Assembly: GCF_000146505.1 (NCBI RefSeq)
Contig: NC_017448.1
Coordinates: 2,910,001 to 2,942,000, forward strand
DNA from: Fibrobacter succinogenes subsp. succinogenes S85
GTDB lineage: Bacteria; Fibrobacterota; Fibrobacteria; Fibrobacterales; Fibrobacteraceae
DNA: 32,000 nt
Reading direction: 5' to 3'
The notes beneath the pieces are model-generated. The model was not told where the DNA came from, did no database searches, and saw only the letters and a list, made by a program, of their open reading frames with translations. Shown in pieces: positions 3,140 through 28,268 of the stretch (positions are counted from its first letter, which is position 1; each line of letters opens with the position of its first letter). Made by a program: the position numbers and the translations under genes.

Positions 3140-3213
3140 TAATTTTTCGAAAAATCAATACCTGTAATAAAAAAAATAAGTAAATGCGTCGTTTTTACAG
3201 ATTCCTTGTTTTT

Positions 3214-5367: not shown

Positions 5368-5368
5368 G

Positions 5369-6359: not shown

Positions 6360-9008
6360 CTAGAACAGCACCCTGTACGGAACTTGCTTGCTATAGTGAC
6401 GCCCTTTCAGGTCGTGGAAACCTTGTTTGCGAGGGAACAGACGTAAATCATTGCGGTTTGCCGCTTGTCGATTCATAATTGCGGTAGTTGTTGAATCGCC
6501 GACTTCGGTGGAGTCTCCTGCAACAATAGATGATGTTGTAAGCAGTTGTGTCACGCCGATGTAGCGGCTAAAGGTGTCGCCTGCATTGTCCTTGAGCGTA
6601 AATTTGATGTAGCCCACGCCGCCGAAGTTATCGGCAAGTTTTACAGTCATCTTGGATCCGCTCACGGTTGCGGTTACGCCTGTCGGGGCGTTCACGGTAT
6701 AGGAGCCGTTATCGTAGCCCTTGGTAAATTGAGCAAGGTCAATGACCTGGGTTTCACCTTTTGCAAAAGTATAGTGCGCGCGAGCCATCCATTCAAGATA
6801 ACGTTCGAGTTCAGTCCAGCCGTCACCCAATCGGTCTTTGTTTGCGTCGCTAAAGTCACCGCTCTTGGATTTCGGATTGTAACCGTACATATTTTCCCAC
6901 CAGTCCGGAAGACCATCGAGATCGGAGTCGTAATCGTTTGCCCTGCTTGTGCTCGGGTAGGGTTCCCAGCCCTTGATATTCGCTGTGTCAACGGCGTCCG
7001 TTTCGCGGTCAGGGATTCCCTTGGTTTTGCCGACAGAACCCACGACGCTGTAAGTTCCGTTTTTTGTTTCCCTGATCATGCGCTGGTCATGATTGTCGAG
7101 AATAGGCTTTGTTTGGCCTACATCGCTCAGCACGTCCTTGTAAGCTGCCGATGCGCTTTGTACAGTGGCGTAAGAGGCGAAGAAAGGTTTGCTGTTCCAT
7201 GGTTCCCAATCGAGAACTTGCCCGCCGCTCAGTGTGTATTCGCGTCCGCAGTTGTCGTTGTTCCCATTGCAAGTGAATGAACCGTTTGCGGCTTGCAAAA
7301 TGTTGTTGTGGTAATAGTAAGCTTGCGAACCTTTGCCAGTTCCTTCAAATTGGGCGCGCAACGTATAACCGTGAAGAGTTGTGCCTGCGCCTTCCTTGTA
7401 GTAATTGCCGACGAAGTTTACTTCGTGCGCTCCGCCATCGGTCACGCGACTTTTCCAATTGTAGACCACGTTGTTAAAAATGTCCAGGCGACCTGCATAA
7501 TAGCCGTTACCGTCTAGCCCACCGCCAAGACTCCAGTTGCGCCCTGCGTTGTGCGCCAGCAAGTTGTGGTGGAAACTCCCGATGTCGCCGCCGATTGTTG
7601 CTGCGTATCCATGTCCTGTTCCTGCTGCATAATTTTGGTGGTCTGCGACATCCAAGGCTTCCGAAATTAAAGTGCGCTGTAGCGTCAGGTTTTTGCCGCC
7701 GCGACTGCTGAACGCTTCGTCAATTGTCCAGCTGATACTTGCGTGGTCAAGAATGCTGTGGTCTCCGCCTGTAAGGCCCATGCCATCGTAAGTTGTGCCG
7801 TAGCCTAAGCGCACACGCATAAAACGGATAACCATATCCTTGCCCGTAAAGCCGATGGGATCGCTTTTAATCGTAATTCCCTTGCCGGGTGCCGTTTGCC
7901 CAGCTATTGTTACATAATCTTGATTGCACACTAGGCGACTTTTAAGTTGTATTACGCCTGCGACTTTGAACATGATGGTTCGTGGACCGATATCTGCTGT
8001 ACACGCTTCGCGCAAACTGCCGGCGCCATCGTCGTTCAGATTTGTTACGTACACGACTTTTCCGCCACGGCCACCGACCGCGTTACGACCATAGCCCTCG
8101 GCTCCTTCAAACGCTAAACGCCCTGGTTTGAATGACCAGATATTTCCTGCCGTAACCGTTCCGTTCGCATCAACTTCATCCACGCGCCAATAGTAGGTCT
8201 GGAGCGGAGTCGTGCCGCTCACCTTATACGAGTTCCCGGATTGCTCGCCCTTGTAAATGGAAGTCGTTGCGGAATTTGCCGAGGTCGCCTTTAAAACCGT
8301 TGCAGAATCCGTCCCGAAATAGACGCGATGCTTTACGGCCGACTTCGCCGCCGTCCACGAAAGCGTCAGCGCCCCGTTTTCGTGTGGAACGTGGTAATCC
8401 AAATCCGTCGGAGAAGGGCTTGTTGCTTGTGCAGCCACATTGGGAACATTCAATTCAAAACCGTTTAGGGTAATCGTACCCGTGTTTAGTTTTACGGTGG
8501 TTGAAGCGCTTGCGCCGCTTACGGAAAAAGTTACATACGCGATCGCCGCACTGGATGTCGAAAGTGCGCGATTTGTTGGTTTGACCGAGGCTTGCTTTGA
8601 ATTGTTCACGTAGACATCAATGCTGTTGCTTGCCGCAACGCCATCGACATTGTTCAGATACAAAAGAAGGCTATGCGTCCCTGCTGCAAGATTCGAGAAC
8701 GTGAGAGTAATGTTTCCGCCGCCTTCGACCATCACACCATCGCACACTAGTTTTGCATAGGAAGGTGATTGTACTCCTGCCTTGTACCAGTTCGTCTTGA
8801 GATTTCCGCTACCGGCGACCTTGATTTTTACGCCCGAAAGTGTCGTATCTTTGGATGTGACGCCCGAAACCACCCACGGCACATAATTCGGCTCGGTTAC
8901 TTCGCTTGAATTACGTCCGCTCATGTCAAAATCAACTTTGATGATTGGTGAACCCGCGAAGGCATGCGCAGCGAGTCCCAAAACCAACATTGATTTAAAA
9001 TATCCCAT
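6360..9008 (-). CDS. Secreted PL1-family pectate lyase with N-terminal beta-sandwich and Fn3-like modules and a short basic C-terminal tail
   Basis: Signal peptide MGYFKSMLVLGLAAHAFAG, with GGGAG upstream. Catalytic block: FEGAEGYGRNAVGGRGGKVVYVTNLNDDGAGSLREACTADIGPRTIMFKVAGVIQL...VTIAGQTAPGKGITIK...MVIRFMRVRLG. Calcium-binding-type repeat: DYDSDLDGLPDWWENMYGYNP. Tail: RKQGFHDLKGRHYSKQVPYRVLF. Confidence 0.8.
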   Translation of the reverse strand: MGYFKSMLVLGLAAHAFAGSPIIKVDFDMSGRNSSEVTEPNYVPWVVSGVTSKDTTLSGVKIKVAGSGNLKTNWYKAGVQSPSYAKLVCDGVMVEGGGNITLTFSNLAAGTHSLLLYLNNVDGVAASNSIDVYVNNSKQASVKPTNRALSTSSAAIAYVTFSVSGASASTTVKLNTGTITLNGFELNVPNVAAQATSPSPTDLDYHVPHENGALTLSWTAAKSAVKHRVYFGTDSATVLKATSANSATTSIYKGEQSGNSYKVSGTTPLQTYYWRVDEVDANGTVTAGNIWSFKPGRLAFEGAEGYGRNAVGGRGGKVVYVTNLNDDGAGSLREACTADIGPRTIMFKVAGVIQLKSRLVCNQDYVTIAGQTAPGKGITIKSDPIGFTGKDMVIRFMRVRLGYGTTYDGMGLTGGDHSILDHASISWTIDEAFSSRGGKNLTLQRTLISEALDVADHQNYAAGTGHGYAATIGGDIGSFHHNLLAHNAGRNWSLGGGLDGNGYYAGRLDIFNNVVYNWKSRVTDGGAHEVNFVGNYYKEGAGTTLHGYTLRAQFEGTGKGSQAYYYHNNILQAANGSFTCNGNNDNCGREYTLSGGQVLDWEPWNSKPFFASYATVQSASAAYKDVLSDVGQTKPILDNHDQRMIRETKNGTYSVVGSVGKTKGIPDRETDAVDTANIKGWEPYPSTSRANDYDSDLDGLPDWWENMYGYNPKSKSGDFSDANKDRLGDGWTELERYLEWMARAHYTFAKGETQVIDLAQFTKGYDNGSYTVNAPTGVTATVSGSKMTVKLADNFGGVGYIKFTLKDNAGDTFSRYIGVTQLLTTSSIVAGDSTEVGDSTTTAIMNRQAANRNDLRLFPRKQGFHDLKGRHYSKQVPYRVLF

Positions 9009-9059: not shown

Positions 9060-9408
9060 GAGCTATTGAAAATTAAGGTTGTCCGTGGACTACGCTACCT
9101 TACTTTTACGGAGGTTCCCGATTCTGTTAAGGGTGCGGAGCAGATTGTAACGGCTTGCAATTCCAAGAACTCCACCAAGGATGTTGCGTCGTTTATTGCG
9201 GCGAAAGATTTGGTTCTTTATGTTGGCTTGGATAGTCGTCTAGTTCGCATCCACGGCAAAAACGTGCAAAAGACATTCCGCATCAACAGGGAATAAGCGA
9301 AGGTATATTAGAAGCTGGAAAGCCCATTTAAACACCTTTTACACGGAAAATTTCAAGATTCCTTGTTTTAATCAACAAAAAATCTATTTTCCTTTAGAGG
9401 TGTTGTTT

Positions 9409-10821
9409 ATGGGATATGTTTGTAACTTTGCGAAGGGCGTTGCCCTTCTTTTCCCGCTATTTCTTTTTGCTTGCGGAAACTCTGAATCGGTGAATTTCAT
9501 TTCGCCGAACGAATCGCTCGTTTCGTTTGGCGGCGAAGCCCAGAGTTCGTCCAGTGAACTTTTGCAAAGTTCATCTTCTTTGACGATTATACAGTCCTCG
9601 TCAATAATCACGCAGTCGTCCTCCTCATCGGTAATCGCGCAATCGTCATCTTCGCGGGTTCCCGTACAATCCTCATCTTCGGTTCTCCCTTCGCCTCCCA
9701 ATAACGGAGTCCCTTACATTCGTATTATAACTTATGATTCTACAAATGTCGATAGCGCCTACGCTCTTTGTTCTGTTGAAATTGCTGGGAACGGAATTTA
9801 TGAGGATTTAGCCCCTGCAAGTGGTAAAATCCGAACTCGTGGAAATTCTACGCGCCTCTGGTACCCTAAAAAGCCTTACCGCGTCAAACTTGATGCAAAG
9901 ACTTCTGTTCTCGGACTCCCTGCCAATAAAGATTGGGTGTTGCTTGCGAATTATCGCGATCAAAGCAAATTCATGAATGCGGTTGCTTTTGATATGGCGC
10001 GTTACATGGGGAGCTTCGCTTTTGTGAACGCCAACCGATTTGTCGAAGTTGAAATCAATGGCGAGTATATGGGCATCTATCAGCTTACCGAGCAAATTGA
10101 ACATGGGGTATCGCGAGTCAATACGGGTAATGGAGGGGTGTTGTTGAGTCTTGACAAGGATGATGGACCGGAACTTTCGCCGAGTGCCACGAATAATTTC
10201 TATAGCAAAATTTACAAGTTGCCTGTTGCCGTCAAGTACCCTAAAAATGTGACCACAACGCAAATCGATACCATATCTGCGAACCTTGCAGTTTTGGAAC
10301 AGGCCATTGCAAATTCCGACTATGACAGCGTTCAAAAACTCATGGATATCAGCAGCTTTATGGATTTTCTAATCTTGCAGGAATTGACGCACAATGTTGA
10401 ATTAGAAGCCCCGCGCAGTATGTATTTGTATAAGGATTCTTCGGGTTTGTATCACATGGGGCCTGTATGGGATTTTGATGGTGGGTTTGCTTATAGCTGG
10501 GATGAAGATACCAAGAAATACTTTGTTGATCAGGACTGGATTTTACATAGAAATCGGACGGTTTCCGGATTCTTTATAAACTTGTTTGCAAATGAAAATT
10601 TCCTGGCTGATTACAAGGCTCGCTGGGGTCAGCTTAAAACAAGTATTCTGGCTGATGTATTTTCAAAGCTAGACGATTATATGTTGCAAACACAAAAGGC
10701 TCTTGAAAATGATGCGATAAAATGGACGCCTGTCCGCAGTTACATTGACGAAGTTCAAAGCCTCAAAAGCTGGCTTACTGAACGCGTGAACCGTTACGAG
10801 TCGGCTTTGCAAAAATACTAG
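9409..10821 (+). CDS. CotH-family (atypical kinase fold) lipoprotein with QSSSS-repeat linker
   Basis: From ORF 9400..10821, with the start set at ATG 9409 (AGAGG 8 nt upstream). Signal and lipobox: MGYVCNFAKGVALLFPLFLFAC. CotH blocks: RGNSTRLWYPKKPYRVKLD...NKDWVLLANYRDQSKFMNAVAFDMARYMG...FVEVEINGEYMGIYQLTEQIE...GPVWDFDGGF. Confidence 0.8.
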   Translation: MGYVCNFAKGVALLFPLFLFACGNSESVNFISPNESLVSFGGEAQSSSSELLQSSSSLTIIQSSSIITQSSSSSVIAQSSSSRVPVQSSSSVLPSPPNNGVPYIRIITYDSTNVDSAYALCSVEIAGNGIYEDLAPASGKIRTRGNSTRLWYPKKPYRVKLDAKTSVLGLPANKDWVLLANYRDQSKFMNAVAFDMARYMGSFAFVNANRFVEVEINGEYMGIYQLTEQIEHGVSRVNTGNGGVLLSLDKDDGPELSPSATNNFYSKIYKLPVAVKYPKNVTTTQIDTISANLAVLEQAIANSDYDSVQKLMDISSFMDFLILQELTHNVELEAPRSMYLYKDSSGLYHMGPVWDFDGGFAYSWDEDTKKYFVDQDWILHRNRTVSGFFINLFANENFLADYKARWGQLKTSILADVFSKLDDYMLQTQKALENDAIKWTPVRSYIDEVQSLKSWLTERVNRYESALQKY

Positions 10822-13294: not shown

Positions 13295-15685
13295 CTATCT
13301 TGTTATGTTAATCGGTCTTGCTTCGCGGTAACTGCCCGTCGTGATTTTTACGATGTAGGTGCCGCGCGGCATTTGGCTCATGTTGAGCGAACGCTTGTGC
13401 AAGCCTGCGTTTTGCATTCCCGTGATTTCTTGTGCAAGCAATGCTCCGAATCCATTGAATAGGCTTATCTTCACATTGTCGCGCTGAGGGAGTGTGTAAT
13501 GGATTTCGAGATTTCCATTACGGAGGGCGAGGTTCATGTGTGTCGAAACTTTGTTGAGTCCGTACATCAGAGCTGTGGTCTTTCCGCTTTCGTCACTGCC
13601 TAATCCGTTGGTAATGCTGACCGTGACTTTGAAAAGGACTGTTTTCCTGTTGTAAGCAAGTCCCTGCGTAAAGCTGTATTTTTCTCCGTTGCTGACGCGG
13701 TTGGGGTAGTGGCCTATCGCGAGAGTCCCGTTTGCCAAATCAGCTTCGCTGAATACATAGGCGGTTTCGCCCCATTCAACGACTTTGCCATCTTTGCTGA
13801 ACCAATGGCCCGGTGTGTTTGCCGTGCTGTTGGTGACGATGTTCCCGTCGTTTTCAAGTGCGAAGAATTGTGCCTGTGTGAGCGTTGCTGTGGTGAGTCC
13901 GAGTTTCTTCGCAACTTCGCTAGCGTTGAATTTTGCAGAAACGGTGGCGTAGTTGTCGTCAATCGGGAGTGTCGCTGTGATGTTGTATGTGGTTGCGCCG
14001 TCCGTGACGATTTTTGCGGAACTGCTGGAGCTCGCGGGCATCTCGATGCTGCTCGAAGATTCCGGCGATACGGAACTGCTCGAACTTGTCGGTGCGTCTC
14101 CGATTTCAGGCCATGCATAATCCAATTTAAAGTTGTTGTAATACTTGACGTTTGCAGCCCCAGCGCCACTGACGCCCGTTTCCAATTTCAACTTATAATC
14201 GTAATGCAGCTTGCGAATTCCCGTGTTGCCGGTGTACTGGTAATCGGTATTCACGATTACCGCGAAAACCATCTGCGAGCCATTCGTCGAAGAAGGCGTC
14301 TTGTCCAGGCGAAGCGTCGCAGAACCTTCGCCCGTAATGGGTTCGCTGTACACAGGTGTACCGTCGGTCGCGCGGTAGCACAGCAAGAAATTCATGTTCT
14401 TGTTATTGGAATTCGCGCCGTTCGGGTAGAAACTCACCGTCACTTCTTTTGCTCCGCTTTGCACCTTCAGCGGCACCACGTTCGAACCCGACCATCCCGG
14501 AGTCGTTTCCTGAATCGGAACAAGGTAACCATTGCTTTCCGTCACCGTCTGGTAAGGCGTCATGGTCCAGGTGTAGCTTTTCCTGTTGTTGTCCCACATG
14601 TCCTGTTCCCAGTAGGTGTCGCTTCCGAAATGCTGGTTCAGCAAATTCTTGATTTCGCCGGACCATTTTTTCATGTCAAGCATCGCAAGCCTTGCGCGGA
14701 ATTCGGTAATGAGCCTGCGCACGCCCGCATCGCCAAGACCCTTGTCGAGGCCGTAGGTCTCGAGCAGGTACTTGGTCTTGCCATAAGCATTTCCGTAAAT
14801 CCAGCGCACCGCACCCGTACCGATCCACGTGCCGATAAAAGTCGGGAAGATGTTGCTGTACTGCGAGCCTCCCAACAGGTAACGCTGATTCTTACCGGTC
14901 ACGCCACCGCCATCGGCGCCGCCACCAGGGCCACCGAAGGTCCCGTCAATCAGCCAGCCCGAATAGGTTTCAATAGGCATAAACGGCGCAATGACCGTCG
15001 CCGCGTTCAAGAATCCCATACCGCTGTAAACACCGTTGCGGTGGCTGAACATATCCTGCTGAATCCAGGTGTTGCCCGCTTCCTGAAACCAGTGCGCATC
15101 CTTTGCGCCGGGGTAACCATTCGTCATCGAGTGAATTCCCTCATGAATCATCGCGTCCATCTGCGCCACGCGATCACGGTAAGGGCAACTCGTATTGAAG
15201 CTATACAGCGGATAGAACGAAGCGGCCACGGCCGTGTAGCCTGCTACCCATGTTTGCCAACCGCCCGTAGTATCCGTCTTTGCGCCACCGGCACACGTAC
15301 CCGAACCGTAGTAATAAACGGCGCTGTACTGACCTTCTTGTGCTTGGGCATCCGGCGCCCATCCCATCTCATTGTACAAATACTCAAAATCGGTATCGTA
15401 CTTCTTAAGAATCGAATCAATCGTCACATCGGTAATGCGGCTGTCGCGATCCTTGCCCCAGTAAAACGCCCACCACTTACCGGCCTTCTTTCCGGTAACG
15501 CCCGAACAATTGTTGTTGAACTTGGTCGGCGGCTTGATTTCGCCTAGGTTCGATTTGGTATCGTAATCCAAATCTGAACGATAGCCGGGCCAAGTGTAGG
15601 CATCGCCAGGTGCCGCGTAAACGTTAATGCTTAGGGCGAACGTCAATGCCGTGCCCGGAATCCATCCCAAACAACTTTTTTGCAT
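13295..15685 (-). CDS. Secreted protein of unknown function with HEXXH-X16-E (gluzincin-like) motif, Ser-rich linker and T9SS-type C-terminal domain
   Basis: From ORF 13295..15697, with the start set at ATG 15685 (GGAG 7 nt upstream). Signal peptide MQKSCLGWIPGTALTFALSINVYA. HEGIH is encoded at 15131-15145 (checked by hand: CAT GAG GGA ATT CAC), followed by ...HWFQEAGN. Linker: TSSSSSVSPESSSSIEMPASSSSS. Tail: VKISLFNGFGALLAQEI...MPRGTYIVKITTG. Confidence 0.7.
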   Translation of the reverse strand: MQKSCLGWIPGTALTFALSINVYAAPGDAYTWPGYRSDLDYDTKSNLGEIKPPTKFNNNCSGVTGKKAGKWWAFYWGKDRDSRITDVTIDSILKKYDTDFEYLYNEMGWAPDAQAQEGQYSAVYYYGSGTCAGGAKTDTTGGWQTWVAGYTAVAASFYPLYSFNTSCPYRDRVAQMDAMIHEGIHSMTNGYPGAKDAHWFQEAGNTWIQQDMFSHRNGVYSGMGFLNAATVIAPFMPIETYSGWLIDGTFGGPGGGADGGGVTGKNQRYLLGGSQYSNIFPTFIGTWIGTGAVRWIYGNAYGKTKYLLETYGLDKGLGDAGVRRLITEFRARLAMLDMKKWSGEIKNLLNQHFGSDTYWEQDMWDNNRKSYTWTMTPYQTVTESNGYLVPIQETTPGWSGSNVVPLKVQSGAKEVTVSFYPNGANSNNKNMNFLLCYRATDGTPVYSEPITGEGSATLRLDKTPSSTNGSQMVFAVIVNTDYQYTGNTGIRKLHYDYKLKLETGVSGAGAANVKYYNNFKLDYAWPEIGDAPTSSSSSVSPESSSSIEMPASSSSSAKIVTDGATTYNITATLPIDDNYATVSAKFNASEVAKKLGLTTATLTQAQFFALENDGNIVTNSTANTPGHWFSKDGKVVEWGETAYVFSEADLANGTLAIGHYPNRVSNGEKYSFTQGLAYNRKTVLFKVTVSITNGLGSDESGKTTALMYGLNKVSTHMNLALRNGNLEIHYTLPQRDNVKISLFNGFGALLAQEITGMQNAGLHKRSLNMSQMPRGTYIVKITTGSYREARPINITR

Positions 15686-15780
15686 AACACACTCCATTTT
15701 TATGCTATTTAGAGAAATAATTTTTGGTGTGCCCTAGCGCAAGTTTTTAAGAAAAATGGAATGATTTTCTGTGTTAGAAG

Positions 15781-15858
15781 TGTGTAAATGTGTAAGAATA
15801 ATTAATGAAATATATTTATTTAATTGTAAATTTGTGTATTTTATTGATTTTTGTGTAA
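15781..15858. promoter_or_regulatory. Very AT-rich divergent promoter region with repeated TGTGTA(A/T)/TGTAAAT motifs
   Basis: TGTGTAA at 15781-15787, 15789-15795 and 15852-15858. TGTAAAT at 15825-15831. TGTGTAT at 15833-15839. TAAATTTG at 15827-15834. The region lies between the minus-strand HEXXH gene and plus-strand cassette 2. Confidence 0.3.
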
Positions 15859-15878: not shown

Positions 15879-16730
15879 ATGTGCATTGCGCTTGAACATC
15901 TGTTTGACTATGACGACTTCCGCAAGTTCCTGCAAGACTATTTTGAGGAACAGAAGAAAATGCGGTCGGTGTTTTCGCATCGATTTTTTGCAGCAAAAGC
16001 GGGATTCAGTAGCTCTTCTTATTGCCTGAATGTTATCCGTGGGCGCTTCAATTTGACTCCGAAATCCATCGAGAAAATTTCAAAGGCGATGGAATTCGAA
16101 CCGTTGCAAAAGACGTATTTCGAGGTGCTGGTGCAGTACAACCAGGCGCAACAAGTTGCCGAACGCGAACACGCCTGGAACCAGATTGTCCAGATTCGCA
16201 AGCAGATAGAATTTACACATGTCACGACTCGTGAACAGGGATACTTCGAAAAGTGGTATTATCCGATTGTGCGCGAATTGGCGGTATCGTCGGATTGGGA
16301 TGGTGACTACCGTGTGTTGGCGCGTTCAGTTGTGCCGCAGATAACGACGGACGAGGCTCGCGATGCGGTGAAAAAGCTGCTGGAATGGGGACTCTTGAAA
16401 AAAGAGGGTGAACGCTATGTTGAAACATCGCAAATGCTCGATGCTTCGGAAATTCCGCCAATGGCTTTGCGACGAATTCGTCATGAGTATATGCAGCATG
16501 CGATGGGGGCTGTGGAATCCATGCCCAAAGATGAGCGCTTTGCCGCATTCACGACTCTTGCAATGAGTGAAAAATCCTACAATTATGCAGTAAAGGTGCT
16601 GGAAGATGCTCGCAAGAAGATTATTGCCCGTGCGGCAAATGATTCGGAAGTGGAACGCGTTTACGAAATGATGCTTGTGGCGTTCCCGATGAGCAAGAAA
16701 ATAGGGAAGGAGGCGGAAAATGAAAAATAG
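15879..16730 (+). CDS. Cassette 2 TIGR02147-family protein (HTH, DUF4423-like)
   Basis: A textbook TIGR02147 N-terminus: LFDYDDFRKFLQDYFEEQKKMRSVFSHRFFAAKAGFSSSSYCLNVIRGRFNLTPKSIEKISKAMEF...YFEVLVQYNQA. This is followed by FEKWYYPIVRELA and a winged-helix-like KKLLEWGLLKKEGERYVETS. No TM segment. The 3' end overlaps the next gene by 11 nt. Confidence 0.9.
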   Translation: MCIALEHLFDYDDFRKFLQDYFEEQKKMRSVFSHRFFAAKAGFSSSSYCLNVIRGRFNLTPKSIEKISKAMEFEPLQKTYFEVLVQYNQAQQVAEREHAWNQIVQIRKQIEFTHVTTREQGYFEKWYYPIVRELAVSSDWDGDYRVLARSVVPQITTDEARDAVKKLLEWGLLKKEGERYVETSQMLDASEIPPMALRRIRHEYMQHAMGAVESMPKDERFAAFTTLAMSEKSYNYAVKVLEDARKKIIARAANDSEVERVYEMMLVAFPMSKKIGKEAENEK

Positions 16731-18117
16731 ACAAGTTTATCTAAAGTTGTCGCGTAATTGCGTTGCGTGCGTGATGTCGCTTGCGTTTTCGTTGTCGTTC
16801 CAGGCTTGCTCGGATAGCGATGATGTGGCCGGTGGAGTGACCGATATCGGAAATTCAATTGCGGATTTGTCTGATACGCTGAGGTATTCCGGTGTAGTGC
16901 AGGACTTGCAGGGGCGTGCTGTTCCTGCTGCGCGTGTCGTTGCCTACTTGGATAATTCGAAAGAAATTGTGGATTCGCTTGAAACGGTCGCTGATTCTAC
17001 AGGGTTCTTTAAGCTAGGTCCGATTCCAAGGATCTCGGCGAAAGGATCTCCGCGTTTTTATGCGGAATCCAAAGGGCTGTCCGGTTTGCGTGGCGATGGA
17101 CTCTCTGACGTAAGGTTGGATACGATTTGCATTGCTGCGCACAAAACTTTAAGTGGAAAAATTGCCGACGCGACTTCTGGTTATGTGCGTATTCCGGGAA
17201 CGCATTTGCGTTCTCTTATCAGTGAAGATGGTTCGTTTGCATTTGATTCTATCCCGGCGGGCTATAGAATGGACCTTGTGTACATGCAGAATGATTCGGC
17301 TATCGCTCAGTTCGAATTCACGGCACTGGAATCAAAGGATTCGCTTAAGTTGCCTGAACTTTCGGTCAATGGGGAATGGCTTACGAGCGGTGATATGCCT
17401 GTTATTGCGGAATACTATAGTTTCCATTATTACCTTCCGTATGATTATCCAGAAAATCTCCCGAATGGGTATGGCGACCCGGAAATTGAAGTTTATCTCG
17501 GCATGAACCGCGATATCAATGTGCTCAACCATGATTCTTCTGTTGCGGAAAACGTAAACTATGTAGATGGTTTGAGCGGCAAGGCGGTGCTTTTGGAACC
17601 GGGACAATTTATCGACTTGGATACGCTTAATCCAACGGGCGGCGACTTTACACTTTCGCTTTGGACCAAGTGGAATGGCCCCAACGGCGAACACCAGGTG
17701 TTGTTTTGCCAGCGAGCTTATTGGAGTGATTCTACATCGCGATTCCAGTGGCATTATGAGGTGAAGAGTGGAACGTTTGCCGTAATGAAGGGTATGCCGG
17801 ACTACCCTGGGGCAGTGTATTTCGGGGATTCGACATCCGTGCCTGTCGGGGAGTGGGCTTTCCTTGTGCTCGTTTCCAAGAATCACATGGTGAGCATGTA
17901 TGTGAACGGTAAAGCGGTAGCAATTGCGGGTTCCGATGGAACTGAATTTGCAGGGGAATTTGTGCCGAACGAGCTGAAACGCAGCGTTCCTTTCCGCATC
18001 GGTGGCGACGAAATTGGGACTGAAACTTGGAATGGTGTGATTGACGAAGTTCGCGTTGAATCCATCGCCCGCAGTCCTGAGTGGATTGAGGTCATGTATG
18101 AGCGGCTGAAGCCTTAA
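16720..18117 (+). CDS. Cassette 2 lipoprotein: two carboxypeptidase-regulatory-like repeats plus C-terminal LamG (Laminin_G_3) domain
   Basis: AGGAGG (16708-16713) lies 6 nt upstream. Signal MKNRQVYLKLSRNCVACVMSLAFSLSFQAC, followed by the acidic stretch SDSDD. Repeats: YSGVVQDLQGRAVPAARVVAYLD...STGFFKL and LSGKIADATSGYVRIPGTH...DGSFAFDSIPAGY. LamG: GGDFTLSLWTKWNG...GEWAFLVLVSKNHMVSMYVNGKAV...VPFRIGGDEIGTETWNGVIDEVRVES. Confidence 0.85.
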   Translation: MKNRQVYLKLSRNCVACVMSLAFSLSFQACSDSDDVAGGVTDIGNSIADLSDTLRYSGVVQDLQGRAVPAARVVAYLDNSKEIVDSLETVADSTGFFKLGPIPRISAKGSPRFYAESKGLSGLRGDGLSDVRLDTICIAAHKTLSGKIADATSGYVRIPGTHLRSLISEDGSFAFDSIPAGYRMDLVYMQNDSAIAQFEFTALESKDSLKLPELSVNGEWLTSGDMPVIAEYYSFHYYLPYDYPENLPNGYGDPEIEVYLGMNRDINVLNHDSSVAENVNYVDGLSGKAVLLEPGQFIDLDTLNPTGGDFTLSLWTKWNGPNGEHQVLFCQRAYWSDSTSRFQWHYEVKSGTFAVMKGMPDYPGAVYFGDSTSVPVGEWAFLVLVSKNHMVSMYVNGKAVAIAGSDGTEFAGEFVPNELKRSVPFRIGGDEIGTETWNGVIDEVRVESIARSPEWIEVMYERLKP

Positions 18118-18143
18118 AATGTGTTTCCAAAAATTATGTATTT

Positions 18144-18168
18144 TGTAAATTATATATAAAAATTTACA
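18144..18168. promoter_or_regulatory. Inverted repeat TGTAAATT-N9-AATTTACA upstream of cassette 3
   Basis: The 8-bp arms lie at 18144-18151 and 18161-18168, 37 nt upstream of ATG 18205. TATATTTG lies at 18192-18199. Confidence 0.35.
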
Positions 18169-18204
18169 TTGAAAAATTGATGATAATTGCTTATATTTGG
18201 AAAT

Positions 18205-19044
18205 ATGATAGATGTTTCCAAAATTAGTGTATTTATGTATTTTGATTACCGCGATTTTATTCGCGCTGTTTTGGAAACAATGCAGTCAAAGGGGCTTTCG
18301 CTCCGAGCGATTCAAGAAAATGCGGGAGTTTCTGGTTCTGCGTTTTTCAGCCGAATCCTAGATGGCTCGCGCCCGCTGTCCATTGCGAATGCGAAAAATA
18401 TCGCCAAGTCTTGGGGGCTTTCTGTTAATGAATCGGATTACTTTCTCGATTTGGTGCGCTTCGGTAACGAAAAGAATGTAGATGTACGCGAAGAATTGTT
18501 GCGAAAGCTCCTTGCGGTCCGTGCGAACAATCAGGAATTTGCTCTGCAGGATTCTTCGCTCAAGTTTTTCTCGAAATGGTACTATCCCGTGTTGCGCGAC
18601 TTGCTCCCTCTGCTTCCGCCAAATATGCCGGCGGAAAAAATTGGACGCATGTTTACGCCAGTGCTTCGCGCTCCTCAGGTGGAAAGTGGTATTCGCTATT
18701 TGATGGAATCGGGATTCGTTACGTTAGATGAAAATGGTGTATATCGTGTGGAACAGCCTATTGTTTCAACTCCGCCTCGCGTGCGTTCTACGATTTTACG
18801 CAAATACCATCTGAAAAATCTTGAAGTGAATAGTGAAGTTTATGATCTGTTCACTAGTGATGACCGCAGCGTTACGAGTGTTACGTGCAGCTTGTCTAAA
18901 GAAAGCTTTGAAAAAGTCCGCGAAGAAATTGCGAAACTTCGCGAAAAAATTCTTGCGTTATCTCGTGAAGAGAAAAATCCAGACCGTGTTTGCCATGTAG
19001 GGTTTCAGTTGGTGAACCGCGCCAAAGTCAAGGAGGTAAAGTAA
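18205..19044 (+). CDS. Cassette 3 TIGR02147-family protein (HTH, DUF4423-like)
   Basis: The ORF 18187..19044 begins with TTG. The first ATG is at 18205, with an alternative ATG at 18235. Motifs: YFDYRDFIRAVLE...LSLRAIQENAGVSGSAFFSRILDGSRPLS...DYFLDLVRFGN...FFSKWYYPVLRDLL...IRYLMESGFVTLDENGVYRV. The stop TAA (19042-19044) shares one base with the next ATG. Confidence 0.85.
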   Translation: MIDVSKISVFMYFDYRDFIRAVLETMQSKGLSLRAIQENAGVSGSAFFSRILDGSRPLSIANAKNIAKSWGLSVNESDYFLDLVRFGNEKNVDVREELLRKLLAVRANNQEFALQDSSLKFFSKWYYPVLRDLLPLLPPNMPAEKIGRMFTPVLRAPQVESGIRYLMESGFVTLDENGVYRVEQPIVSTPPRVRSTILRKYHLKNLEVNSEVYDLFTSDDRSVTSVTCSLSKESFEKVREEIAKLREKILALSREEKNPDRVCHVGFQLVNRAKVKEVK

Positions 19045-20270
19045 TGTACCTCCGTAATGTTTTTCGAAAACTGGTTTGGGTATTCCCTTTGGGTGTTGTG
19101 GCTTTTGTCGCAATCCTTTGTATTTCGATTGTTGGCTGTAGCGGAAATTCTGACATCGCAAACGGCACGGGTAGTAATGCTGGTGAAACTGAAATTGCAG
19201 GGATTATCACGGCGACAAATCATGGGAAACCTTTGGTGAATGCGCTTGCCCGTGTGTGGATTTTGGACGAAGACTCCATGCATGTGGCGTATGAAGATTC
19301 TTTGGATAACAATGGTGTTCTTGAAATTAGGTCCGCTGTTCTTGGTGAAAAAGCGCCTGTCCAGCTTTTGGAAACGCGTTCGGGCGACTCGTTATCTACA
19401 ATGCGCTGGGTCAATCTCGAACGTAGTCCCGAACAAACCCTTTCTATTGCGGCAAGTGAGACTCTTAAGGGTTCGATAACGAATAACGGTGTTGCAGTAG
19501 AAGGTGCAACTGTTTCCATTTTGGATAAGTCCGTCGTTACAGATGTAAACGGAAACTTTGAATTTAATGATTTGCCTGCGGGCGTGCATTATGCTTTTGT
19601 CGAAGGCTATTTTGGAAAGTTCTCGTACCAGATGGAAACCGGATTGAATGAAGGTGCGACAACGAACAACATTAATCTCGCAGATAGCATTTTTACGGTT
19701 GTCGAAGATTTTGAAAACTGGAAAAAACAGACATTTATCGGAAAAAGTTTTGGACAGGGCTGGTGGTTTATTTGCACAGACTCGTTGCAGGGTGGCGGAA
19801 GTCGTGCAAGCGCGGGTGTCGATAGTGAAAATCTTTTTGTTTCTGGCGATAGCGCCAAAAGTGGAAAAAGCTTGCACGTCTCATTTGATATAGATGAGAA
19901 AACTCCGGGGCATTATGGAGTTATCGGTTTTACGATTGGTGACGATTTTGATAAGGCAGAAATGTTTGCGTTCTATGATTTGCGTAAGGCGACTGCAATT
20001 TCGTTTGATGCCAGAGGTTCTGGAAAAATCTCGTTGCAGATAGCCAAACGCAGTGATAAAGGCGAACGTGAATATCACGAATCGTACTTTGTGACGCTTA
20101 CGGAAAAATGGGAACATTTCACGTTTACGGCAGATGATTTCGATACAGAACTTATTGCGGTCAATGCAATCAACATTCTCGTTATTGACGATACCGAAAT
20201 TTACCTTGACAATATCCGCTTTGACGGTATTTCGCCCAGTATGTGGCCGAGTCTCGGGATGCGTTTTTAA
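19044..20270 (+). CDS. Cassette 3 lipoprotein: carboxypeptidase-regulatory-like repeats plus C-terminal CBM11-like beta-sandwich
   Basis: From ORF 18990..20270, with the start moved to ATG 19044 (AGGAGG 19031-19036, 7 nt upstream). Signal and lipobox: MYLRNVFRKLVWVFPLGVVAFVAILCISIVGC. Repeats: IAGIITATNHGKPLVNALARVWILD and LKGSITNNGVAVEGATVSILDKSVVTDVNGNFEFNDLPAGVHY. C-terminal pattern: EDFENW...GGGS...LHVSFDID...ISFDARGSGKISLQI...WEHFTFTADDFD...IYLDNIRFDG. Confidence 0.8.
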   Translation: MYLRNVFRKLVWVFPLGVVAFVAILCISIVGCSGNSDIANGTGSNAGETEIAGIITATNHGKPLVNALARVWILDEDSMHVAYEDSLDNNGVLEIRSAVLGEKAPVQLLETRSGDSLSTMRWVNLERSPEQTLSIAASETLKGSITNNGVAVEGATVSILDKSVVTDVNGNFEFNDLPAGVHYAFVEGYFGKFSYQMETGLNEGATTNNINLADSIFTVVEDFENWKKQTFIGKSFGQGWWFICTDSLQGGGSRASAGVDSENLFVSGDSAKSGKSLHVSFDIDEKTPGHYGVIGFTIGDDFDKAEMFAFYDLRKATAISFDARGSGKISLQIAKRSDKGEREYHESYFVTLTEKWEHFTFTADDFDTELIAVNAINILVIDDTEIYLDNIRFDGISPSMWPSLGMRF

Positions 20271-20297: not shown

Positions 20298-22193
20298 ATG
20301 AAAAAGTCAAAAATGGCGATTGTCGCCTTGTGTGCGTTTGCCTTTGTGGGTAGCGCATTTGCAACAATTCAGCCCACGCGCGTAGGTCCCGTAAGTCAAT
20401 ACGGTGCTTTGCAAGCCGGCAAAAATTCCGCTGGCGAAGGCCGCATTTATGGAAGCGTGCAAGGCGTCAAAGATGGAGCCGAAGTTCAGGTGCGCGGAAT
20501 GAGCCTTACCTGGAGTATCTTTTGGCCAAACGGAATGTCGTTCTACGGCAATTCCTTTATTGATTCGCTTGTAGGCGAGTGGAATGTTGAACTTGTTCGC
20601 TCTGCAATGGGTTCCGTTGGAAATTGGGGACAAGGGAATTACAAGACTCGTCCTGAATATTATTCCGCACAAATGGACACGGTCGTACAGGCGGCTATCA
20701 GAAACGATGTTTATGTTTTGGTGGACTGGCACAGTGAAGGTGGCTATTATAATTGCATTCACAAGGGTGTAAAACCGAAGTACGAATTTAATGATAATAA
20801 GGCTTGCTTTACGGCAAGTGATGCCGCGAAATTCTTTGGAATCATGGCTCAGCGTTATGGCAAATACCCACATGTGATTTTTGAAATTTACAATGAACCT
20901 GTGAGTGAAAGTTGGAATGACCTCAAGGCTTATGCTGATACAGTCGTTCAGGAAATTCGTAAATATTCGGATAACTTAATTGTTGTAGGGACACCGATGT
21001 GGTCTTCTGCGGCTGGCGATGCTGTTGCAAATCCCGTCGTTGACAAGAATGTTGCTTACACGCATCATTTTTATGCCAATATGCATAACATCAATGAAAC
21101 ATCGACTAGCCAGAATGCAAGCCCGAACAAGGCTATTGCTGCGGGTCTCAGTGTTTTCGTGACCGAATGGGGCTGGGTTGAAAAAGATATCAACGATGCC
21201 AAGACCAAGGCGAATGCCGATGCGTTCCTGAAATGGGTTGACGAAAAGAAACTTTCTACCGCCAAATGGGATGTCGAAAAGCCGTATCTTGAAGATAATG
21301 ATGACGACAACTATATCAAGGCGAACGTTCTTCCGCAAAAGACGACTTACACAAAGAACCTTGATTGGGCTTCGCAAATTAACGATGATCTCCCGTTTGC
21401 TCTCAAGACGACATCGACAGATGCTACCGGAGAATGGAGCTTTATTACGGATGTGAGCGGTAGCGATGAACAGGGTGACCACGGTAATTCTAGTTTCGAA
21501 GATAACTCCGAAAACGGAATGGTCAAGATGGATAAAATCAAGCTTGATACGGTCGGCACTGCTTTTGACTATGCACCTTATGTGAATGCCGATTTTACTT
21601 TCAATTTTGATATTTCCAAGTGCAAAATGTTCAGCTACCGCTATAAAGGTACGAACCATCAATTTGTAGCCTATAGCGATTGGAATACGTCTACCGAAAT
21701 TCTCGGTCAGGGACTTTGGGATTATCCGTTTGTCGGCATGCCTTATTCTCCGGAATGGACAACCGCTTATGTGGATTTTGGCTGGATGGTCAATAATGGC
21801 TGGCAGGCTGATGTACCGACAATTTTCTCTACAAAGTTGACGACGGCGCTCCGCTTTAGTGTTACCAACGTTGCGTTTGGCGATTATCTCTGGATTGATA
21901 GTCTCAAGTGCGTCGAAGATGTGTCCAATTACACGGTTATGGAAATCCCGGACATTTTAAGTATCCCGACGGCGAGAATGGCTGCTCGCAATTTTGTTCG
22001 CGTGAATACTGACGGCTTGAATATCGTTGCGACGGGCGTTAAGAATGGAAGCCATTATTCGCTCTCCAATGTTCTTGGACAAACTTTGCGTGTGGGCGTG
22101 GCGAAAGCGGGCAATTTCTCGATGACTGCGCCGCGTGCTGGTCGCTACATTCTCCGCATTGGAAATTCTGTCTATCCGGTAACGGTAAAGTAA
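20298..22193 (+). CDS. Secreted GH5 endo-beta-1,4-glucanase with CBM-like module and T9SS-type C-terminal domain
   Basis: AGGAGAGAG upstream. Signal peptide MKKSKMAIVALCAFAFVGSAFA. GH5 blocks: VRGMSLTWSIFW, VYVLVDWHS, VIFEIYNEP (acid/base NEP), YTHHFYA, VFVTEWGW (nucleophile). Tail: HYSLSNVLGQTLRVGVAKAGNFSMTAPRAGRYILRIGN. The gene starts 27 nt after the cassette 3 lipoprotein, with no terminator between them. Confidence 0.85.
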   Translation: MKKSKMAIVALCAFAFVGSAFATIQPTRVGPVSQYGALQAGKNSAGEGRIYGSVQGVKDGAEVQVRGMSLTWSIFWPNGMSFYGNSFIDSLVGEWNVELVRSAMGSVGNWGQGNYKTRPEYYSAQMDTVVQAAIRNDVYVLVDWHSEGGYYNCIHKGVKPKYEFNDNKACFTASDAAKFFGIMAQRYGKYPHVIFEIYNEPVSESWNDLKAYADTVVQEIRKYSDNLIVVGTPMWSSAAGDAVANPVVDKNVAYTHHFYANMHNINETSTSQNASPNKAIAAGLSVFVTEWGWVEKDINDAKTKANADAFLKWVDEKKLSTAKWDVEKPYLEDNDDDNYIKANVLPQKTTYTKNLDWASQINDDLPFALKTTSTDATGEWSFITDVSGSDEQGDHGNSSFEDNSENGMVKMDKIKLDTVGTAFDYAPYVNADFTFNFDISKCKMFSYRYKGTNHQFVAYSDWNTSTEILGQGLWDYPFVGMPYSPEWTTAYVDFGWMVNNGWQADVPTIFSTKLTTALRFSVTNVAFGDYLWIDSLKCVEDVSNYTVMEIPDILSIPTARMAARNFVRVNTDGLNIVATGVKNGSHYSLSNVLGQTLRVGVAKAGNFSMTAPRAGRYILRIGNSVYPVTVK

Positions 22194-22214: not shown

Positions 22215-22274
22215 CTAAAATTGGCTTTGCCAATAAAAAGCACCCTAGAATTGACTTTGTCAATAAAAAGCACC
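22215..22274. repeat. Two tandem 30-bp repeats, each containing a 5-N3-5 palindrome
   Basis: Unit 1, 22215-22244: ctaaaaTTGGCtttGCCAAtaaaaagcacc. Unit 2, 22245-22274: ctagaaTTGACtttGTCAAtaaaaagcacc. There are three differences, and two of them are compensatory within the palindrome. Confidence 0.8.
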
Positions 22275-22300
22275 TCGACGTTTGCCGAGGTGCTTGATTA
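22264..22300. terminator. Bidirectional rho-independent terminator between the convergent GH5 and PL1 genes
   Basis: AGCACCTCG (22269-22277), an 8-nt loop, then CGAGGTGCT (22286-22294). It is flanked by AAAAA upstream and by TTGATTATTT downstream. Confidence 0.7.
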
Positions 22301-22319: not shown

Positions 22320-24077
22320 TTAAAATAAAATCCTGTATGGAATTTGCTTTTCGAAGCGGCGGCCTTTGAGGTCGTGGAACGTGTTCTTGCGCATTTGAGG
22401 CACGTTGCGGAATGTGTGGGCTTCTTGGAAAGCATCTCGAATTGCCGTTGTGGAATCTTGCGCCGTCTTGCTAGAGTCTTGAGCCGTTTCGCTGGAGTCT
22501 CGCGGCTGTTCCGGTGGCTCGCTTGCGTTTGCGGACTTTTCGACGAGTATTTCTACGCGGCCTGTGTATTCAGTGTTGTCGTTTCCTTTGACGGTGTACT
22601 TGAATGAGGCGAGTCCTTTGAAGTCTTTGTCGGGTGTGAATCGGGCGGTATAGCTGTCACCCGCGAGTTCCACGGTCCCGTTTTCTGCAGCCGATACGGT
22701 GTAAGACGGTTTTACTTCCTGGAACCCGCGAGTGATTGTACGCAGGTCAAAATCGAGCGTTCCGTTGCCTTCGACTTGTGCATGCATGGCACCGAGCCAG
22801 TTGATGTATTTTTCAATGCGGACGTAGCCGTCGCTTTCCTTGGTCATGGCGTCGTCTTTTGCGGTGTCATAGCCCATTGCTTCTTCGAAGTAGTCCGGCA
22901 TACCGTCTTTGTCGCTATCTGTGGCTGCTTTCCCGGCGATGACTTCACCCCAGCCGTTGTTTGTTTTGAGGCCCATAGCGCCTACGGATTTTACGAGCGC
23001 GCCTTCCTTGCCGAGCGTGCCGACCTGGTGCCAGATAAGCGAATCAATGTCGTCGTAGGGGAGGACGCCACTTTGCGAGGTCACGTAGCGCCAGGCGCTT
23101 GCCGCACTCATCATCGGGCCCTTTGTCGTGAGCTCGTTCCACGGATTTTTCAGTTCTTCGCCAGGTCCCTGGTAGTAATAAATGCTTGTTGGCCCGCCAT
23201 TGAGCACTCCGTCGCGGTTTTTGTCGATTAGGTTTCCGCTTGCGTAAATGCTTTGGTTTTTATCAACCTGAAACCACTCGTTTTTACCTTCAGGACCATA
23301 GACAAAGTAGTTGTTCACGATGTCGTGCTTGAATTTTGCACTAGTGTGTGTCGTGTAGCCCGCTTCGAAGTTGTAAAGGATGTTGTTGACGAAAATGTCG
23401 TTAATCTTGTCGAGCGGGTTTCTGTTGTGCGTATTCACGAAGGCGTTGTAGTACCACGCCCAAGTACCGTCAATGGATTCGATGTGGGCGCCGAACTGCT
23501 GGCCAATCGGGTTTGCAATGAGCGAATTCTGCACAGTGATGCCAGTGACACGGTAATCTGCGTTGTCCGAAGAGCCTCCGAAGTTATTCCACGGAGCAAG
23601 TTCTACCGAGCAATGGTCCACAATGACGTTTTTGGCATCGTAGAGGTTGAGCGCGTCGTCTTTGGTGCTTGCCGTATTTTCGCCCGGACGGATGCGCAAG
23701 TAACGGATGATGATATTGCTCTGCTTGCCTGTCGAAAGTTTTCCGCCGTGAATGGCGATCCCCTCGCCTGGGGCTGTCTGCCCGGCAATAGTGATGTTCG
23801 ACTTGATCGAAACGGCAGTTTTGATATTGATGATGCCGCCAACGTCAAAAACGACAATGCGGTTCCCTTGGCTAACCGCATCGCGGAATGAGCCTGCGCC
23901 GTCATCGTTCAAGTTTGTTACATGGTAAACGGTGCCTGCGCGGCCACCCGTAACGTTTGCGCCAAATCCCAGCGCTTCAGGAAACGCGAGCGGCTCGGCG
24001 CTTGCTTCTATACACCAAAACGATAAACAGAGCGCCGAAACCGCGAAATTTCGCTTAAAACCAAAAGAATATCCCAT
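22320..24077 (-). CDS. Secreted PL1-family pectate lyase with short basic C-terminal tail
   Basis: The ORF 22320..24083 begins with TTG. The first ATG is at 24077 (MGYSFGFKRNFAVSALCLSFWCIEASA). Catalytic block: FPEALGFGANVTGGRAGTVYHVTNLNDDGAGSFRDAVSQGNRIVVFDVGGIINI...ITIAGQTAPGEGIAIHG...IIIRYLRIRPG. Calcium-binding-type repeat: DSDKDGMPDYFEEAMGYD. Tail: RKNTFHDLKGRRFEKQIPYRILF. Confidence 0.8.
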   Translation of the reverse strand: MGYSFGFKRNFAVSALCLSFWCIEASAEPLAFPEALGFGANVTGGRAGTVYHVTNLNDDGAGSFRDAVSQGNRIVVFDVGGIINIKTAVSIKSNITIAGQTAPGEGIAIHGGKLSTGKQSNIIIRYLRIRPGENTASTKDDALNLYDAKNVIVDHCSVELAPWNNFGGSSDNADYRVTGITVQNSLIANPIGQQFGAHIESIDGTWAWYYNAFVNTHNRNPLDKINDIFVNNILYNFEAGYTTHTSAKFKHDIVNNYFVYGPEGKNEWFQVDKNQSIYASGNLIDKNRDGVLNGGPTSIYYYQGPGEELKNPWNELTTKGPMMSAASAWRYVTSQSGVLPYDDIDSLIWHQVGTLGKEGALVKSVGAMGLKTNNGWGEVIAGKAATDSDKDGMPDYFEEAMGYDTAKDDAMTKESDGYVRIEKYINWLGAMHAQVEGNGTLDFDLRTITRGFQEVKPSYTVSAAENGTVELAGDSYTARFTPDKDFKGLASFKYTVKGNDNTEYTGRVEILVEKSANASEPPEQPRDSSETAQDSSKTAQDSTTAIRDAFQEAHTFRNVPQMRKNTFHDLKGRRFEKQIPYRILF

Positions 24078-24114
24078 AAACAACCCCTATATTGCAATAT
24101 ACTGAAAAAATACC

Positions 24115-28256: not shown

Positions 28257-28268
28257 ATCTTGTCTTGC

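Follow-up and report, generated by a model that had tools for sequence, protein, structure and literature searches.

A 32,000-nt stretch of Fibrobacter succinogenes subsp. succinogenes S85 (NC_017448.1, positions 2,910,001 to 2,942,000; hereafter the window) carries three copies of a two-gene cassette, in which gene 1 encodes a TIGR02147 protein with the features of a cytoplasmic DNA-binding regulator and gene 2 encodes a tightly coupled lipoprotein. Cassettes A and B (genes 1A-2A and 1B-2B) stand in tandem at 15879-20270, and cassette C (1C-2C) lies at 3250-6286, all among genes for carbohydrate-active enzymes (CAZymes). We found that the pairing recurs across phyla, that the lipoproteins share a short motif behind the lipobox cysteine that is rare in other lipoproteins, and that gene 1 is preceded by repeats that read as group-specific operators. 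Our preferred reading, to which we would give roughly an even chance, is a split sensor-regulator, in which gene 1 would be a paralog-specific local regulator of CAZyme genes and the lipoprotein its cognate extracytoplasmic ligand-binding partner that conditions it.

The assignment of gene 1 to TIGR02147, made in the original prediction from the sequence alone, was upheld by profile searches, which gave 210, 183 and 247 bits against a cutoff of 50 for 1A (15879-16730, + strand, 283 aa), 1B (18205-19044, + strand, 279 aa counted from the ATG at 18205, a start taken from the sequence) and 1C (5369-6286, − strand, 305 aa), respectively. The alignments span positions 2-272 of the 272-position model, and the C-terminal halves also matched PF14394/DUF4423 with 82, 73 and 78.5 bits against a gathering threshold of 30. 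Since 1B and 1C are only 20-21% identical to 1A, the three cassettes are old paralogs and not recent duplicates. No hydrophobic segment was found in the three proteins (maximal Kyte-Doolittle 19-residue averages of 0.5-1.0), which agrees with the earlier statement that gene 1 has no transmembrane segment. Each gene 1 is followed on the same strand by its partner, 2A (16720-18117, + strand, 465 aa), 2B (19044-20270, + strand, 408 aa) or 2C (3250-5367, − strand, 705 aa), and the three two-gene units, with gene 2 starting within −11 to +2 nt of the gene 1 stop, were recovered as first described: by sequence inspection, the ATG of 2A at 16720 overlaps the 1A stop by 11 nt, the ATG of 2B at 19044 has one base in common with the 1B TAA at 19042-19044, and the ATG of 2C at 5367 lies beyond the 1C stop at 5369-5371 with a 1-nt spacer. 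A GGAGG-type ribosome-binding site precedes all three gene 2 starts. Likewise, a lipobox with its cysteine was read in every gene 2 product (SFQAC with Cys30 in 2A, IVGC in 2B and LIGC in 2C), so that all three are predicted to be lipidated, as had been claimed.

To follow the pairing beyond the window, we used two independent sets of 80 related loci each (160 loci, 1.41 Mb of fetched DNA), the first from species-representative genomes with the three paralogs as queries and the second from metagenomes with 1C and 1B as queries; about half of each set consisted of distant relatives at 22-34% identity, and the named genomes of the first set covered Fibrobacterota, Chitinispirillaceae/Chitinivibrionales, Desulfobacterales, Smithella and Bdellovibrionota. 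A same-strand open reading frame (ORF) starting −20 to +5 nt from the stop followed 82 of 91 gene 1 copies in the first set, and an ORF with a signal peptide and a cysteine followed 77 of 82 copies in the second. After clustering below 60% identity, a partner with signal peptide and cysteine was present in 36 of 42 clusters (~86%) and tight coupling in 31 of 42, and below 40% identity such a partner was kept in 12 of 13 clusters. The commonest junction is a 4-nt ATGA overlap, and some of the seeming exceptions are misses of the script, such as locus L115, which has an ATGA-coupled partner with the motif GTGSSAGNG. The fixed pairing and tight coupling proposed for the window therefore extend well outside it, whereas the suggestion of a Fibrobacter-specific module did not hold, since the pair also occurs in Desulfobacterota and Bdellovibrionota. 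The family itself is large: profile searches with clustering at 50% identity returned 19,035 clusters at E ≤ 1e-3 and 13,589 at E ≤ 1e-10. Cassettes also adjoin one another elsewhere, with C and D in tandem in L095 (4959-8062), a second cassette beside the B-type unit in L123, L125 and L131, and two side by side in the environmental contig L101.

What the partners have in common is confined to their N-terminal part, namely a signal peptide, a near-invariant cysteine (found in 90% or more of 32 diverse partners) and a short motif 2-16 residues beyond it. This tether motif has the consensus (G)G(S/T)(E/D/Q)(T/I/V)(G/T)N(G/P/S) and is exemplified by AGGVTDIGNS (2A), GGTETTNG, ATSETTNG, NTEIGNPE and GTGSQAGNG, with GSGSETVIG and GIFIETNTGNK (2C) as variants. 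In 2A it occupies residues 38-46 (GGVTDIGNS), in 2B it is degenerate (SDIANG / GETEIAG), and in 2C it reads AGIFIETNTGNK, is duplicated and is kept in all 16 of 16 orthologs. In the fetched DNA, the strict motif was found in 94 of 148 lipoprotein-like ORFs adjoining gene 1 versus 2 of 196 others (Fisher's exact p = 1e-42), and both of these exceptions sit 230-290 nt downstream of a TIGR02147 gene. A role as a general lipoprotein sorting signal was therefore ruled out by its absence from the ~194 remaining lipoprotein-like ORFs. Paralogs of one genome differ in their motif variant, with a single fixed variant per ortholog group.

Among 36 orthologs of 2A (43-95% identical), G39, T41, D42 and I43 are invariant and the flanking residues at least 90% conserved, while residues 29-48 are disordered in the AlphaFold2 (AF2) model, with a predicted local distance difference test score (pLDDT) below 50. 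Such conservation of a disordered stretch points to a short linear motif of the tether rather than a piece of a fold. The idea that it forms the first strand of the following beta-sandwich was unsupported, both by this disorder and by the Desulfobacterales partners, which keep the motif ahead of an unrelated beta-propeller; the latter also imply that leader and motif remain attached to gene 1 even where the remainder of gene 2 has been exchanged. We further considered a perfect 10-bp palindrome, CCGATATCGG, which lies within the TDIGN codons of 2A (window 16838-16849) and of most orthologs. It was ruled out as an operator because the synonymous sites vary among orthologs (ACC/ACG/ACT/ACA, GAT/GAC, ATC/ATT); this free variation indicates that the constraint acts on the protein, and the palindrome appears to be a by-product of codon choice. 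The signal peptide as a relayed signal, in the style of the enterococcal pheromones, is also unlikely, because the signal peptides of 2A orthologs are unconserved while 1A is ~85% conserved.

The rest of the lipoprotein evolves much faster than gene 1: orthologs of 2A are ~32-51% identical where those of 1A are 74-86% identical. Entire domains have been gained or lost, group A partners being 445-573 aa long and those of group C 195-715 aa, and yet the tether motif and the C-terminal LamG module stay fixed. At close range, a protein of Fibrobacter sp. UWB12 shares 95% identity with 2A, and 1A orthologs occur at 97% identity in F. succinogenes metagenome-assembled genomes. In 32 diverse partners the Pfam domains comprised CarboxypepD_reg (12), LamG (6), DUF2341 (5) and Beta_propel (2), as well as Kelch, PKD, fn3 and Reg_prop, the last being the sensor propeller of two-component regulators, and no catalytic family was present among the 25 Pfam families listed for them.

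The C-terminal modules had been described as LamG in two copies and as CBM11-like in the third, and this was only partly borne out. Against a PF13385 threshold of 27.6, the LamG module of 2A scored 67.1 bits and that of 2C 25.6, just under the threshold, with the 2C ortholog in locus L089 passing at 29.5 bits. In 2B, a CarboxypepD_reg sandwich was matched (E = 4e-7), but PF03425 (CBM11) gave no match even at E ≤ 1; the C-terminal jelly roll of 2B is CIA30/CBM11-like at sub-threshold level, with CIA30 matches in 2B and three paralogs that reach 16-22 bits and so stay below the cutoff of 24. CIA30 and CBM11 belong to one Pfam clan. The AF2 model of 2A (pLDDT 83) consists of two beta-sandwiches followed by LamG, whose best match in the Protein Data Bank (PDB) is 5hon_A, the arabinan-binding domain 4 of the GH43 (glycoside hydrolase family 43) arabinanase AbnA (E = 3e-10, target-normalised template modelling (TM) score 0.61), followed by lectin domains of trans-sialidases and clostridial neurotoxins. 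Glycan binding by 2A is thus supported by a modelled fold. As a general description of the partner, however, glycan binding, which the original prediction had assumed, is not a conserved trait, since other lineages have beta-propeller, Kelch, Reg_prop, PKD or DUF2341 modules in its place.

Sequence comparison of the regions upstream of gene 1 found what appears to be a conserved repeat specific to each ortholog group, that of group B by one reading. For group A, three TGTGTAA boxes (15781, 15789 and 15852; 15781-15858, + strand) lie in the divergent intergenic region upstream of 1A and are candidate 1A operators. In 50 orthologous loci these boxes form conserved blocks in an otherwise divergent, AT-rich upstream region, with 111 same-strand matches within 200 nt upstream of 1A and few elsewhere. 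The signal is positional and not global: over the whole window six matches were found versus 3.1 expected, which is not significant, and TGTGTAA boxes at other window genes were dropped as candidates, the other three matches all lying inside coding sequence. Upstream of 1B, the inverted repeat TGTAAAT-N11-ATTTACA (18144-18168, + strand) is a candidate operator; since the orthologous upstream regions of 1B obtained here are near-identical, the group B repeat is a reading of a single sequence.

The clearest case is cassette C, for which two TACTAY-N6-TACTAY repeats upstream of 1C (6319-6336, − strand, and 6286-6303, + strand) are candidate 1C operators and a third with one mismatch (3123-3140, + strand) lies 18-36 nt upstream of the start codon of a gene for a GH43 enzyme with a family 6 carbohydrate-binding module (CBM6). 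Three matches in the window compare with 0.08 expected, and 35 of the 36 exact matches in the 1.41 Mb fall in 1C loci. Allowing up to one mismatch, the repeat occurs in 1C loci only upstream of 1C and 90-155 nt beyond the 2C stop, the second position being just upstream of the next gene, which encodes GH43+CBM6 in the window and in L089 and GH53+CBM6 in L082. A putative intrinsic terminator (GCCCCTTCAAACGGGGC followed by a T-run; 3216-3240, − strand) separates 2C from GH43+CBM6, and this gene (1020-3104, − strand; Pfam) is, from its start codon and upstream repeat, likely a member of the cassette C regulon. In group D, whose partners carry ATSETTNG, the palindrome GTGGACAAAAATGTCAAC stands in a divergent promoter region common to gene 1 and a GH26+CBM35 gene and recurs upstream of the next gene along. 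Taken together, the group-specific conserved repeats, and the presence of the cassette C repeat before GH43 and GH53 genes, speak for the proposed role of gene 1 as a DNA-binding regulator, with binding itself as the step that we infer.

The architecture of gene 1 is consistent with such a role. In the AF2 model of 1A (mean pLDDT 77, ~90 over residues 1-110 and lower beyond residue 185), a helical N-terminal domain is followed by a central winged helix and two long helices. Foldseek matched the N-terminal domain to C.AhdI, C.Esp1396I, SinR and HigA (probability 0.9-1.0, target-normalised TM-score 0.55-0.68), with E-values above 0.1 for the XRE-type matches C.AhdI, C.Esp1396I and SinR, and the middle part to winged helices of the MarR/ArsR/HxlR type. 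Sequence-profile searches of the PDB gave C.BclI (E = 0.008) and an immunity repressor (E = 0.009), and SlyA for residues 155-205 (E = 0.28), while Pfam HTH_3 was not matched in the gene 1 proteins at E ≤ 0.1. The probable XRE-type helix-turn-helix (HTH) is the best conserved and most confidently modelled part of the protein. Searches for remoter homologs were dominated by near-identical rumen orthologs, which explains the shallow alignment and the low confidence of the C-terminal part of the model. Neither a tetratricopeptide repeat (TPR) nor another known sensor domain was found in gene 1 by Pfam, and the model contains no TPR array. Rosetta-stone fusions joining gene 1 with a membrane or sensor domain were discarded because the longer representatives looked like mis-called starts. 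From fold and profile matches, the N-terminus of gene 1 is thus probably an XRE-type HTH, and the protein is best described as a putative sequence-specific DNA binder of the cytoplasm, in which that domain precedes a central winged helix.

In the split sensor-regulator that we prefer, gene 1 would bind the paralog-specific repeats in its own promoter, giving autoregulation, and the same repeat in a neighbouring CAZyme promoter, giving local control. The translationally coupled gene 2 would supply a leader, a disordered tether motif and non-catalytic ligand-binding modules, here LamG and jelly-roll domains; the lipoprotein would sense a ligand outside the cell and condition the activity of gene 1, with the tether motif as the coupling element. 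Three ways across the inner membrane can be envisaged: the tether peptide may be released by proteolysis and taken up, an unlinked transducer may be shared by the cassettes, or the precursor may be recognised before its export. The lipoprotein is taken to be the cognate sensor because, from phylum to phylum, pairing, coupling and motif are retained and the binding modules exchanged. A diderm trans-envelope pair, in which the module binds its ligand and a released or exposed tether peptide relays this to the double-HTH regulator, for example by uptake, is a more specific form of the idea to which we give only a small chance. If true, RRNPP peptide signalling would have a lipoprotein-based counterpart in Gram-negative bacteria, with dozens of insulated one-ligand, one-promoter switches in Fibrobacter and related phyla and with arabinan, galactan, glucan or mannan as the ligands here.

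Several points weigh against the split sensor-regulator. The regulator and the exported lipoprotein sit in different compartments, and no inner-membrane route is visible, given that gene 1 has no membrane segment and that no transducer gene is conserved nearby in 30 distant loci. A third conserved gene around the pair was not found in these loci, where the largest neighbour cluster occurred in four, and a conserved transducer, protease or sigma factor in this position was thereby ruled out. Orphan TIGR02147 genes occur (the L005/L137/L142/L151 group, L061 and L118), and the loci, chosen by similarity to 1A and 1C, do not amount to a complete survey of any genome. The repeats ahead of gene 1 might instead belong to a promoter or be bound by another factor, co-inheritance of the cassette as a unit could alone explain a motif found only beside gene 1, every fold-search E-value for gene 1 exceeds 0.01, and the C-terminal third of its model is of low confidence.

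Simple co-expression is the strongest competitor, possible in our estimate though clearly less probable than a sensor: gene 1 would be a one-component local regulator responding to a cytoplasmic cue, and the lipoprotein a surface glycan-binding or adhesion product comparable to the SusE/F-type accessories. Operator-like repeats and CAZyme synteny suit such a plain local regulator, as does the lack of a visible signal route through the membrane, and the fast divergence of 2A relative to 1A is what exposed surface proteins display. The partners in Fibrobacter also carry an acidic stretch after the cysteine (CSDSDD...), which resembles the lipoprotein export signal of Bacteroidota. The tether motif would then have an envelope role in surface or vesicle sorting, docking or shedding, and would be linked to gene 1 through duplication of the unit. 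However, families of regulators normally diversify their targets, whereas here 36 of 42 lineages from several phyla keep one kind of partner with overlapping stop and start, as is typical of cooperating proteins; the near-absence of the motif from other lipoprotein-like ORFs does not fit a general sorting signal, and paralog-specific variants, each fixed in its ortholog group, argue against one shared envelope receptor. These three observations are why we prefer an input role for the lipoprotein. Moreover, F. succinogenes lacks transport and catabolism for hemicellulose products (PMC3079729), so that a cytoplasmic regulator would lack its ligand and extracytoplasmic sensing is favoured.

Two further explanations are improbable. 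In one, the partners would be alternative, fast-evolving surface lipoproteins with their own regulators, expressed conditionally or exclusively, for example to vary the surfaces met by phage or host, and the CAZymes would be incidental. The many paralogs, the tandem cassettes (A and B in the window, C and D in L095, two in L101) and the rapid divergence and remodelling of partners beside conserved regulators, with 2C orthologs of 195-715 aa, are compatible with this, but invertible elements and switch repeats were not observed, conservation of the C-terminal LamG module is good, the cassette C repeat also precedes GH43 and GH53 genes, and CAZyme synteny is kept over 66-94% identity. Slightly less probable still is that gene 1 serves as a chaperone, targeting factor or secretion-coupled partner switch that recognises the tether motif before export, as winged-helix recognition elements do on leader peptides. 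It would account for the near-universal translational coupling, for a disordered linear peptide specific to gene 1 partners and for the winged helix in gene 1; the probable XRE-HTH, which surpasses the rest of the protein in conservation and model confidence, and the group-specific DNA repeats upstream of gene 1 and of neighbouring genes, do not agree with it. Export through the Sec and lipoprotein pathways also usually needs no dedicated cytoplasmic factor.

Compared with described systems, the cassette would work most like a local XRE-type autoregulator. The best N-terminal matches of gene 1 are the C proteins of restriction-modification systems and phage CI/Cro-type repressors (C.BclI, C.AhdI, C.Esp1396I and the immunity repressor), and as with these, short sites recur immediately ahead of gene 1, a layout suggestive of autoregulation. 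Unlike C proteins, gene 1 has roughly four times their length, carries a winged helix and a C-terminal region in addition, and is tied to a lipoprotein gene. The RRNPP cassettes of Firmicutes (Rap-Phr, PlcR-PapR, NprR-NprX, PrgX) combine an XRE-type HTH regulator with a tightly coupled or overlapping gene for a secreted protein and have many paralogs per genome, and the gene order, the coupled secreted partner and the cassette-specific peptide motif seen here recall them. Nevertheless, the partner here is a lipoprotein of 200-930 aa and not a small pro-peptide, the motif stands right after the signal peptide instead of C-terminally, the hosts are diderms, and release and uptake of a peptide are hypothetical; as gene 1 has no TPR domain, the cassette is not an RRNPP system.

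With the polysaccharide utilization loci (PULs) of Bacteroidota, which use SusR, hybrid two-component or extracytoplasmic function (ECF)/anti-sigma regulators and SusC/D and SusE/F-like proteins, the cassettes share the clustering of a local regulator, a glycan-binding lipoprotein and CAZymes as one unit per glycan. They differ in that a sensor domain in the membrane or periplasm is absent from the regulator and that the lipoprotein is of another, motif-defined family; and since SusC/D genes are missing, the notion of a minimal PUL analogue was not sustained, the scanned window ORFs having given no match to SusC/SusD, TonB_dep_Rec or Plug families. RcsF of the Rcs phosphorelay and NlpE of the Cpx system share with the proposed model an envelope lipoprotein that conditions a cytoplasmic transcription response, but they act via inner-membrane kinases or IgaA, none of which is linked here, and are not part of a coupled pair. 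The XRE/WhiJ-DUF397 cassettes of Streptomyces likewise consist of many paralogous XRE-type regulators per genome locked to a small set of partner genes; there, the partners are cytoplasmic, and no sequence relationship was detected. Membership in a defence system was ruled out by a search with the PADLOC models, which gave no system match and only a 13-bit AbiEii fragment (E = 0.009).

The neighbourhood of the cassettes conforms to the CAZyme context described initially. The window genes around them encode GH43+CBM6, two pectate-lyase-like proteins, a CotH protein, an RGL11 lyase, a DUF4859 protein with a type IX secretion system (T9SS) tail and a GH5 enzyme, beyond which housekeeping genes follow. 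The window ORFs that were scanned include neither histidine kinases nor ECF sigma factors, SusC/D pairs or AraC-type regulators, so that the claim of no other regulator type beside these CAZyme genes also stood. The DUF4859/DUF6055 gene with the T9SS tail (13295-15697, − strand; Pfam) is divergent from 1A, shares its intergenic region and is a possible 1A target; the arrangement is kept in 17 of 20 loci holding a homologue, at 70-94% identity. The GH5 cellulase gene (20298-22193, + strand; PF00150) follows 2B after a 27-nt spacer with a ribosome-binding site. No terminator-like site was found between the two, while a strong bidirectional intrinsic terminator (22268-22295; a 12-pair stem and then a T-run) ends the co-directional A/B/GH5 block. 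The order 1B-2B-GH5 is kept in L123, L125 and L131 at 66-87% identity, and judged from the sequence, GH5 is probably co-transcribed with 1B-2B. Downstream of distant cassettes (53 genes, considered without a background rate), GH5, GH2, several esterases and other putative glycosidases recur.

Other features of the window were recorded in passing. A CotH-kinase-family lipoprotein with a long serine-rich linker (SSSSE...SSSS) is encoded at 9400-10821 (+ strand) among pectin and hemicellulose genes, and CotH genes also recur downstream of distant cassettes. The two pectate-lyase-like proteins (6360-9008 and 22320-24083, both − strand) end alike in a basic tail, HDLKGR(H/R)(Y/F)(S/E)KQ(V/I)PYR(V/I)LF, which looks like the basic terminal domain FPm-1 of F. 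succinogenes (PMC3079729). The protein encoded at 13295-15697 matches Por_Secre_tail (T9SS), and the C-terminal stretch of the GH43 protein is similar. The terminator at 22268-22295 is common to the convergent GH5 and pectate-lyase genes, and its stem segment AAAAGCACC recurs ~32 nt upstream, at 22236-22244. Eight kb off, among plsX, fabG and rnc, lies a gene for an OppA/DppA-type solute-binding lipoprotein (SBP_bac_5; 28260-30095, + strand), which is probably unrelated to the cassettes and would be relevant only if tether peptides are imported.

Two observations concern the cassette genes of other loci. In the unpaired Fibrobacter subgroup, comprising L005 (1071-2126, − strand) and the − strand copies in L137, L142 and L151, no coupled lipoprotein lies downstream of gene 1; these proteins read HWRHLTIRSL where the paired members read KWYYPVIREL and end in FALFPVGGK, and the subgroup could serve as a natural control for the pairing. 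In many distant partners, the residue at −1 before the cysteine is H, R, K or Q (ALLHC, TALRC, LLKC, LFQC), as in L049, L052, L056, L059, L060, L061, L064, L069 and L076, and also in L098, L110 and L150. The canonical residue at this position of a lipobox is G, A or S, which raises the question of whether such partners are processed by LspA or mature by another route.

TIGR02147, which we take from TIGRFAMs to be a paralogous family of unknown function, is named the 'Fsuc_second' paralog family in NCBIfam. The earlier statement that it has no assigned function agrees with a full-text search of one paper library, in which no paper named TIGR02147, PF14394 or its InterPro entry and none dealt with the function of the family; one paper lists the DUF4423 protein Bd3700 as upregulated during growth of Bdellovibrio within prey. 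For F. succinogenes, the genome paper explicitly left the regulation of CAZyme genes unresolved and found few recognisable regulators near them (PMC3079729). A family of many paralogs beside GH5, GH26, GH43, GH53 and pectin-related genes, with predicted operators in the promoters, makes this question testable, and the sensor model would give polysaccharide-specific switches for arabinan and galactan (GH43, GH53), glucan (GH5), mannan (GH26) and pectin genes. We found no description of an obligate coupling between a cytoplasmic regulator and a motif-bearing lipoprotein for TIGR02147. Such coupling represents either a new wiring from sensor to regulator or a new lipoprotein signal, and should the lipoprotein turn out to signal to the regulator, the finding would be new in kind. 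The cassettes may explain how Fibrobacter controls its plant-cell-wall enzyme genes.

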